Assembly (NCBI RefSeq): GCF_003018255.1
Contig: NZ_CP027440.1
Reading direction: 5' to 3' (one strand)
DNA length: 64,000 bases
From: Escherichia coli
GTDB lineage: Bacteria; Pseudomonadota; Gammaproteobacteria; Enterobacterales; Enterobacteriaceae
Below the pieces are notes generated by a model, which saw nothing but the letters and a program-made list of their open reading frames with translations, ran no database searches and was not told the origin of the DNA. Each line of letters begins with the position of its first letter. Position 1 is the first letter of the stretch. Shown piece after piece: positions 35,697 through 35,985 of the stretch. Position numbers and translations under genes: made by a program.

Positions 35697-35718
35697 TCCT
35701 GATTTGTTACGTTAAACG

Positions 35719-35744
35719 CCTGTCATCCCGACAGGTGTTTTTTT
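35719..35744 (+). terminator. tcyP terminator shared tail-to-tail with cedA
   Basis: cctgtc-atccc-gacagg hairpin followed by tgttttttt; the T-tract overlaps the cedA stop codon. Confidence 0.6.
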
Positions 35745-35985
35745 ATTCTTCGACCTCATTTTCCTGACGAATCTGATTTGCCCAACGCTGGGCGGATTCA
35801 GGCACAGTAAACGCCGGTGAGCGCAGAAATGACTCTCCCATCAGTACAAACGCAACATATTTGCCACGCAGCATCCAGACATCACGAAACGAATCCATCT
35901 TTATCGCATGTTCTGGCGGCGCGGGTTCCGTGCGTGGGACATAGCTAATAATCTGGCGGTTTTGCTGACGGAGCGGTTTCTTCAT
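35743..35985 (-). CDS. cedA: Cell-division modulator CedA
   Basis: ORF-track 87-aa frame trimmed to internal ATG at 35985 (MKKPLRQQNRQ...), 80 aa; upstream ATG at 36006 is an alternative. Confidence 0.8.
   Translation of the reverse strand: MKKPLRQQNRQIISYVPRTEPAPPEHAIKMDSFRDVWMLRGKYVAFVLMGESFLRSPAFTVPESAQRWANQIRQENEVEE

Follow-up and report, generated by a model that had tools for sequence, protein, structure and literature searches.

Genes and features at the tcyP/cedA junction

In the 64-kb stretch of E. coli DNA analysed here (the window), tcyP and cedA lie tail-to-tail, with a spacer of only 46 bp between their stop codons (Table 1). The arrangement had been read from the letters in an earlier note, and the ORF coordinates agree with it (stops at 35696 and 35743-35745). 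TcyP of the window is identical to the RefSeq-annotated tcyP product of strain 104, and CedA is recognized by Pfam PF10729 (E = 8e-46) and NCBIfam NF007510 (188 bits). The last TcyP residue (window 35692; position 7322 of the K-12 locus piece L001) is Arg (…ELAHR) in the window and in most species, and His (…ELAHH) in K-12 and C. amalonaticus.

Elsewhere in the window, a type III effector gene of the EspL1 / ShET2 family (espL1, 27338-28261) is truncated to a 307-aa ORF. Compared with strain 104 and most close relatives, 863 bp are missing from it, with the breakpoint near 28130-28135, and the shorter form is common to two Japanese human isolates, JNE23-011 and JNE112863.

Table 1 Features of the tcyP/cedA junction and Rfam elements elsewhere (window coordinates unless an accession is given)
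Feature	Position	Strand	Basis
tcyP (ydjN), cystine/sulfocysteine:cation symporter, 463 aa	34305-35696	+	ORF list
tcyP stop codon TAA	35694-35696	+	
Intergenic spacer of the compact (ydjO-less) allele, 46 bp	35697-35742	.	Between the tcyP and cedA stops
Hairpin, predicted shared terminator: stem CGCCTGTC / GACAGGTG, loop ATCCC	35714-35740	.	Terminator scan, folding
Run of seven T on the cedA side of the hairpin	35738-35744		
cedA, cell division activator, 87 aa (RefSeq extent)	35743-36006	-	ORF list, PF10729, NF007510
cedA as annotated in K-12, internal Met start, 80 aa	35743-35985	-	
cedA stop codon (TTA on the + strand)	35743-35745	-	
Allele-specific cedA 3' tail: stop and last 9 codons	35743-35770	-	K-12 comparison
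Whole allele-specific block, 73 bp	35698-35770	.	Breakpoints from BLAST and ungapped comparison
K-12 counterpart block, 1122 bp	NC_000913.3 1812327-1813448 (K-12 locus piece L001, 7328-8449)		
ES036 (CssrF) sRNA-like element, first copy, just after katE	38541-38583	+	Rfam, gathering level
ES036 (CssrF) sRNA-like element, second copy	45695-45737	+	Rfam, gathering level
STnc540 sRNA	19397-19555	-	Rfam, gathering level
Phe leader	23396-23520	-	Rfam, gathering level

One hairpin between two converging genes

The earlier note had also described a single hairpin with a T-tract that overlaps the cedA stop codon, and both were recovered. The hairpin AAACGCCTGTC-ATCCC-GACAGGTGTTT, found by the terminator scan, is the only one in the 46-bp spacer, and the T-run reaches two bases into the cedA stop. 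On the + strand it folds into an 11-pair stem of -15.8 kcal/mol (z = -3.6; 0 of 200 shuffled sequences were as stable), and seven consecutive T's directly 3' of the stem form the U-tract for tcyP. Read in this direction, the element is a predicted canonical intrinsic terminator.

On the - strand the fold reaches -12.8 kcal/mol. A C-to-T change in the 3' arm of the window gives a G.U pair on the tcyP strand and an A.C mismatch on the cedA strand. The A-run on the tcyP side is only AAA (TTAAACG) in the window, compared with 4-8 A's in the outgroups, and only three U's follow the stem on the cedA strand. Because of the A.C mismatch and the three U's, the reading toward cedA is predicted to be the weaker terminator, which makes some degree of cedA read-through, antisense into tcyP, plausible.

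An A-run, a GC hairpin and a T-run are found at all outgroup junctions (52 of 52), with stem sequences that vary between genera, and the four compact non-coli Escherichia species carry the same hairpin as the window (CGCCTGTC...GACAGGCG). A structure that is kept while its stems change looks like a conserved bidirectional terminator. No Rfam family matches the junction; the four Rfam hits of the window all lie elsewhere.

Comparison with K-12

In MG1655 the gene order is tcyP, ydjO (804 bp, - strand, 267 aa), a 288-bp spacer and cedA, and the tcyP-cedA stop-to-stop distance is 1095 bp vs 46 bp in the window. The gene of about 0.8 kb which the earlier note remembered between tcyP and cedA of K-12 is thus really there, and its proviso that K-12 might have the same 46-bp spacer does not apply. 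The window lacks ydjO, as had been suspected: neither a ydjO match nor a ydjO primer site occurs in the 64 kb.

The two arrangements differ by a swap of 73 bp in the window for 1122 bp in K-12 (net 1049 bp). Homology with K-12 ends directly past the tcyP stop (about 35698-35703) and restarts inside cedA, whose last 30 nt contain 11 differences from K-12, mostly synonymous, compared with 3 differences in the other 234 nt, and the CedA C-terminus reads ...QENEVEE in the window vs ...QEGEVTE in K-12. In tcyP, 43 of 1392 nt differ, with about 3% at the 3' end. No counterpart of the 46-bp spacer is detectable in the K-12 block. Since 1122 bp stand against 73 bp and 11 of the 30 cedA-tail nucleotides are changed, the alignments indicate a two-allele site formed by block replacement, including the last 9 cedA codons, and not a clean insertion or deletion. 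The GC content is 35% for ydjO and 33% for its upstream spacer, vs 52% for tcyP, cedA and katE.

A search for repeats at the junction, which the earlier note had proposed, gave no convincing target-site duplication. At the edges of the K-12 block, the only candidate among target-site duplications and terminal repeats is a 9-bp imperfect TAATYCTTA that overlaps both stop codons; it was rejected as a target-site duplication, as E. albertii lacks it and chance probably accounts for it. Separately, 17 of 21 positions agree between the K-12 cedA tail CACTTCCCCTTCCTGGCGGAT (L001 8431-8451) and a same-strand segment inside ydjO, CACTTCCCATTCCCGGAAGAT (L001 7563-7583). Chance alone would give about 0.1 matches of this kind (21 nt, 81%) in the region, and the resemblance may be without meaning.

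The K-12 allele contains two candidate hairpins of its own. One (GGCAACGG...CCGTTGCC plus TTACTTTTT) lies inside the 3' coding end of ydjO, and, as judged by eye, the ydjO homologue of E. albertii has a similar sequence at its own 3' end. The other (CTCCCGG...CCGGGAG) lies directly past cedA. With the shared hairpin gone, the hairpin in the ydjO 3' end would serve tcyP in this allele, and the second one is the other candidate to take over.

Two alleles among E. coli genomes

We surveyed 5426 complete E. coli genomes, 5424 of which have the tcyP/cedA flanks. The compact allele was scored by an allele-specific 101-bp probe and the ydjO allele by a match to the K-12 block. The compact allele is found in 20.7% of the flank-bearing genomes (1123 of 5424), in a single copy each, and the number varies from about 1123 to 1129 across counts. 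The ydjO block is found in about 79% (4301 of 5424), with coverage of at least 80% in 4240 genomes; in 61 genomes there is only a partial block, damaged for example by an inserted IS1. The two counts sum to 5424, indicating that essentially each genome carries one allele or the other. A strain-variable junction, as anticipated in the earlier note, is therefore borne out by this BLAST panel.

Compact-allele genomes include Nissle/EcN, UTI89, APEC O1:K1:H7, ExPEC XM, M-17 and H105, most of which we take to belong to phylogroup B2. Over 20 kb (26000-46000), the nearest relatives of the window are APEC O2-211, APEC O78:H4 and similar avian/extraintestinal strains (99.2-99.4% identity), presumably of ST117 and phylogroup G. 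None of the complete genomes surveyed matches the window exactly over this interval, the best one reaching 99.4%. Strain 104 shows 100% identity over 35200-36250, yet 134 mismatches over 17.9 kb. The window would thus come from a relative of ST117-like avian or extraintestinal strains that is not among the sampled genomes. The ydjO gene is present in O157:H7 and in IAI39, the latter presumably of phylogroup F.

Two unusual records were noted in the E. coli set. One match to the compact junction is on a 'plasmid', which may be a mislabelled chromosome. In HH97 (NZ_CP116409.1; L058 2882-3052), the tcyP-cedA spacer is 171 bp long, about 100 bp of G-rich sequence (GGCGGCGGTGGGGGTGTCCCGG...) plus A13 stand in place of ydjO, and the adjacent katE is annotated as a pseudogene. 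This spacer is probably a local assembly error and not a third natural allele.

Outgroups and polarity

The outgroup scan used one genome per GTDB species with CedA (E. fergusonii is not in the set) and gave 54 loci, 52 of them with both genes. The compact layout, with cedA and tcyP tail-to-tail and without ydjO, is found in 50 of the 52 species, from Citrobacter, Salmonella, Enterobacter, Leclercia, Kluyvera, Atlantibacter and Pseudocitrobacter to E. whittamii and three more non-coli Escherichia. The spacer is 45-70 bp long in 40 of 52. E. whittamii and the three other non-coli Escherichia species have spacers of 45-47 bp that are orthologous to the window spacer and differ from it at roughly 15-25% of positions, and the CedA end ENEVEE is common to the window and these four species.

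Because 50 of the 52 species show the compact layout, the compact allele is, on this sampling, the ancestral state of both genus and family, with the ydjO block as the derived one. The earlier note had offered, as one possibility, that ydjO is a K-12-lineage insertion. Its direction holds. The restriction to K-12 does not, as about 79% of E. coli carry ydjO, and neither does a clean insertion, as a block was replaced and the cedA tail changed with it.

Other variation at the locus was observed among the outgroups. In Siccibacter colletis (L050 5232-6136), a 905-bp insert lies at the cedA/tcyP junction with the terminator hairpin kept on the tcyP side; it contains an addiction-module antidote gene (PF21716, 48.6 bits) after a frameshifted, weakly Gp49/HigB-like ORF. 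Spacers of 240-340 bp occur in four other genera (Klebsiella indica, Intestinirhabdus and two others). The katE gene, present in E. coli, is absent between chbG and cedA in E. albertii (CH991859.1; L062 2992-4264), and it is also missing beside cedA in thirteen other outgroup loci, such as several Citrobacter and Kluyvera; S. arizonae gives a partial match.

The ydjO-type allele beyond E. coli

The two outgroup exceptions with a ydjO-type allele are E. albertii and Escherichia sp. MOD1-EC7003 (cryptic clade). In E. albertii (GCA_000155105.1, 4.67-Mb scaffold), the interval between cedA and tcyP contains a ydjO homologue (35-38% identity; tblastn E = 1e-23), which an IS1 with a 9-bp target duplication (GGAACACCG) interrupts. 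When the IS1 and one 9-bp copy are removed in silico, an intact ORF of 257 aa is restored, which ends beside the tcyP stop as in K-12. In the protein database, E. albertii YdjO is present only as a 79-aa fragment. Using sensitive blastn, no E. albertii-type ydjO allele was found in the E. coli genomes.

The 194-bp spacer of MOD1-EC7003 corresponds to a K-12 block from which a deletion between 12-bp direct repeats (AAYAGATCGTCA) has removed about 890 bp. The remnant keeps the ydjO 3' end and a K-12-type cedA tail, and the body of its cedA is 6-8 nt of 234 away from E. coli.

The last 30 nt of cedA are 0-5 nt apart among the ydjO-linked sequences (K-12, NMBU-W10C18, MOD1-EC7003 and E. albertii), 0-8 nt apart among the compact-linked ones (the window, E. 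whittamii and three others), and 8-13 nt apart between the two classes. The first 234 nt group by species, and the tail groups by allele. As the tail sorts by allele and not by species, the dimorphism is old, and it either predates or has crossed species boundaries.

The ydjO gene and its protein

YdjO matches nothing in Pfam, NCBIfam, PADLOC, PHROGs or the sequences of the PDB. Among 5.8 billion proteins and 1.84 billion cluster representatives, the genuine matches were all from E. coli, with none outside the genus Escherichia. Its AlphaFold model is weak (pLDDT 60.6, pTM 0.59), and a Foldseek search of the PDB with this model gave nothing usable (best E 0.04, TM 0.18). By these searches, YdjO is an Escherichia-only orphan, almost confined to E. 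coli. Between E. coli alleles the dN/dS of ydjO is 0.17-0.27, its dS within E. coli is up to 0.44 vs 0.11 for tcyP, and an allele of only 76% identity occupies the same slot. Going by these rates, ydjO behaves as a real gene under relaxed purifying selection.

One apparent distant homologue, P0034 (299 aa, 26% identity, E = 1e-36), was rejected as an artefact, namely a purine-swapped E. coli ydjO. Its contig (L059, from Logan SRR33321306, 2042 bp) differs from K-12 ydjO by 491 A>G, 357 G>A and 10 other changes. Such purine-swapped contigs in protein databases could mislead remote-homology searches.

The ydjO block has the marks of a genomic islet, being absent at the syntenic site in 50 of 52 species and having 33-35% GC vs 52% in the flanks. 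No mobility gene, integrase, convincing target-site duplication or phage/plasmid copy was found for the block, and for the gene itself no phage or true plasmid copy was found. A plasmid vehicle for ydjO was considered and rejected: the 'plasmid' matches in PLSDB (NZ_CP134663.1, NZ_CP141089.1 and NZ_OL790696.1) are 4.8-4.9 Mb long and evidently are mislabelled E. coli chromosomes.

The K-12 ydjO/cedA spacer has been listed as one of 78 'promoter islands', bound by H-NS, and linked to genes predicted to be horizontally acquired (Panyukov & Ozoline 2013, PMC3661553). This listing agrees with a derived, foreign ydjO block. Our best guess is that ydjO is a dispensable foreign gene silenced by H-NS.

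ydjO as a marker for E. coli detection

A 2024 study (PMC11057252) named YahL, YdjO and YjfZ as conserved signature proteins (CSPs), described YdjO as 'highly conserved' and 'exclusive to E. coli/Shigella', and built a qPCR assay on ydjO. The sensitivity panel consisted of ten enterohaemorrhagic and seven environmental isolates. In that work, detection was lowest with the ydjO assay (93%), and its results also followed culture counts least closely (r = 0.65).

Neither site of the published primers (TTCTCGCTACAGGCACATTC and GGCGATGCATACTGACTCAT) is found in the 64-kb window. Among the 5426 complete genomes, the 99-bp amplicon is absent from 20.9% (1132 genomes) and the whole ydjO block from 1125, and in a further 491 genomes the amplicon is present at only 90-95% identity. 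Two ydjO-positive alleles have one mismatch to the forward primer and 3-4 mismatches to the probe. The ydjO-less lineages, assigned by us from strain names, presumably include Nissle/ST73, UTI89/ST95, ST131-type and ST117-like.

Specificity of the assay is probably fine, because divergence of the E. albertii allele is too great and the forward site is missing from the cryptic-clade remnant. Sensitivity, to judge from the missing target, should be nil for B2-type and ST117-like strains. With about one in five complete genomes lacking the target, the assay should under-count such lineages, and this expectation fits its lowest detection rate and weakest culture correlation in the published comparison. 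The practical relevance is modest: water-quality qPCR that treats ydjO as universal would miss what are presumably major human and avian extraintestinal lineages.

Origin of the two alleles

We consider the segment 35697-35745 of the window to be the ancestral tcyP/cedA junction and the ydjO block to be an old derived allele, which had a single origin within Escherichia and has been exchanged through its flanks (probability roughly 0.85). The starting point is what was observed at the locus, i.e. its anatomy, the allele frequencies, the outgroup polarity, the base composition and the allele-specific cedA tail; from these we infer how the terminators act, how the block was transferred, and whether B2/G retained or regained the compact allele. 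In the compact allele, one Rho-independent hairpin, with its T-run entering the cedA stop, would be common to both genes, an efficient stop for tcyP transcripts and a less effective one for those of cedA. The derived allele would have arisen once, anciently, when 1.12 kb of AT-rich foreign DNA took the place of the 73-bp block. This DNA contains the orphan ydjO with the H-NS-bound region upstream of it, a cedA tail of diverged sequence and two terminator-like hairpins. Later, this cassette would have been inherited or swapped by homologous recombination via the conserved tcyP and cedA flanks, and the window lineage and B2-type strains would carry the old allele.

Could the window lineage once have been K-12-like and simply have lost ydjO by an internal deletion? 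Deletions in ydjO do occur, as in the cryptic clade (L007/L065), and 61 E. coli genomes have a partial block. However, the genuine deletion derivative looks different, with its 194-bp spacer, ydjO 3' end and K-12-type cedA tail, whereas the 46-bp spacer of the window is unlike the K-12 block and orthologous to outgroup spacers, so that deletion could not create it, and deletion does not explain the 11 of 30 changed cedA-tail nucleotides either. A simple loss is thus highly improbable. An assembly collapse or sequencing error at the compact junction deserves practically no credence. Nothing speaks for it, although the unrelated HH97 does have a suspicious G-rich filler at this site, itself a likely assembly error, and 1123 genomes finished independently of one another, as well as four other Escherichia species, have the same single-copy junction.

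More weight has to be given to a different history of the compact allele, in which the E. coli ancestor carried ydjO and the B2/G ancestor regained the compact form by homologous recombination from another Escherichia lineage. The ydjO-type allele is present in MOD1-EC7003, the closest sampled outgroup, in E. albertii and in IAI39 (phylogroup F, as we assume), and the compact genomes, B2-type and ST117-like, presumably form a sub-branch of E. coli. Yet a near-identical compact block is missing from every sampled species (roughly 15-25% of spacer positions differ), the sequence immediately bordering the block is that of an ordinary E. coli (cedA 3 of 234 nt; tcyP 3' end about 3%), and incomplete sorting, with both alleles persisting for long, explains the same data. 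We regard this regain as possible but rather unlikely. Less likely again is a long-lived trans-species polymorphism of two alleles that predates the split of E. coli and E. albertii and has been kept by selection on ydjO or on cedA termination or expression; if it were true, the absence of ydjO would mark the B2/G extraintestinal lineages functionally and not by chance.

With the junction of the window read as the ancestral arrangement, what stands out is the age of the two alleles, their spread across species and the conflict with the marker-gene claim. The site is a small and clean example of an old block replacement with an edge inside a coding sequence. The locus might be used to mark lineages, or to test long-lived polymorphism against introgression in Escherichia.

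Comparison with known systems

Generally, this is a known kind of variation, the presence or absence of an accessory orphan between annotated genes, in which the window has the older arrangement. Compared with the CSPs of E. coli/Shigella (PMC11057252), YdjO is indeed almost restricted to E. coli. However, it is not species-wide, its amplicon missing from one fifth of the genomes, and not strictly exclusive, given the diverged E. albertii homologue and the cryptic-clade remnant. The likeness to promoter islands (PMC3661553) is in the K-12 allele, where ydjO and the 288-bp region upstream of it are AT-rich (33-35% GC) and absent from the outgroups; that description fits the K-12 allele, and the window carries none of it. 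In contrast to mobile elements, the ydjO islet is a single gene without mobility functions and behaves as an allele exchanged through its flanks.

Like the hotspots of accessory genes between core genes, the tcyP/cedA junction holds different cargo in different organisms, ydjO in Escherichia and the PF21716 antidote gene in Siccibacter colletis. However, it has only one or two small alternative cargoes, whereas tRNA-linked islands show high turnover. The hairpin of the window resembles the bidirectional Rho-independent terminators of convergent genes, in which one GC-rich hairpin between converging genes is flanked by an A-run and a T-run. It differs from them in that it is asymmetric (-15.8 vs -12.8 kcal/mol), owing to an A-run shrunk to AAA and the C-to-T change that gives G.U on one strand and A.C on the other, and in that the cedA stop codon lies partly within its T-run; that it acts as a terminator is a prediction from the fold.
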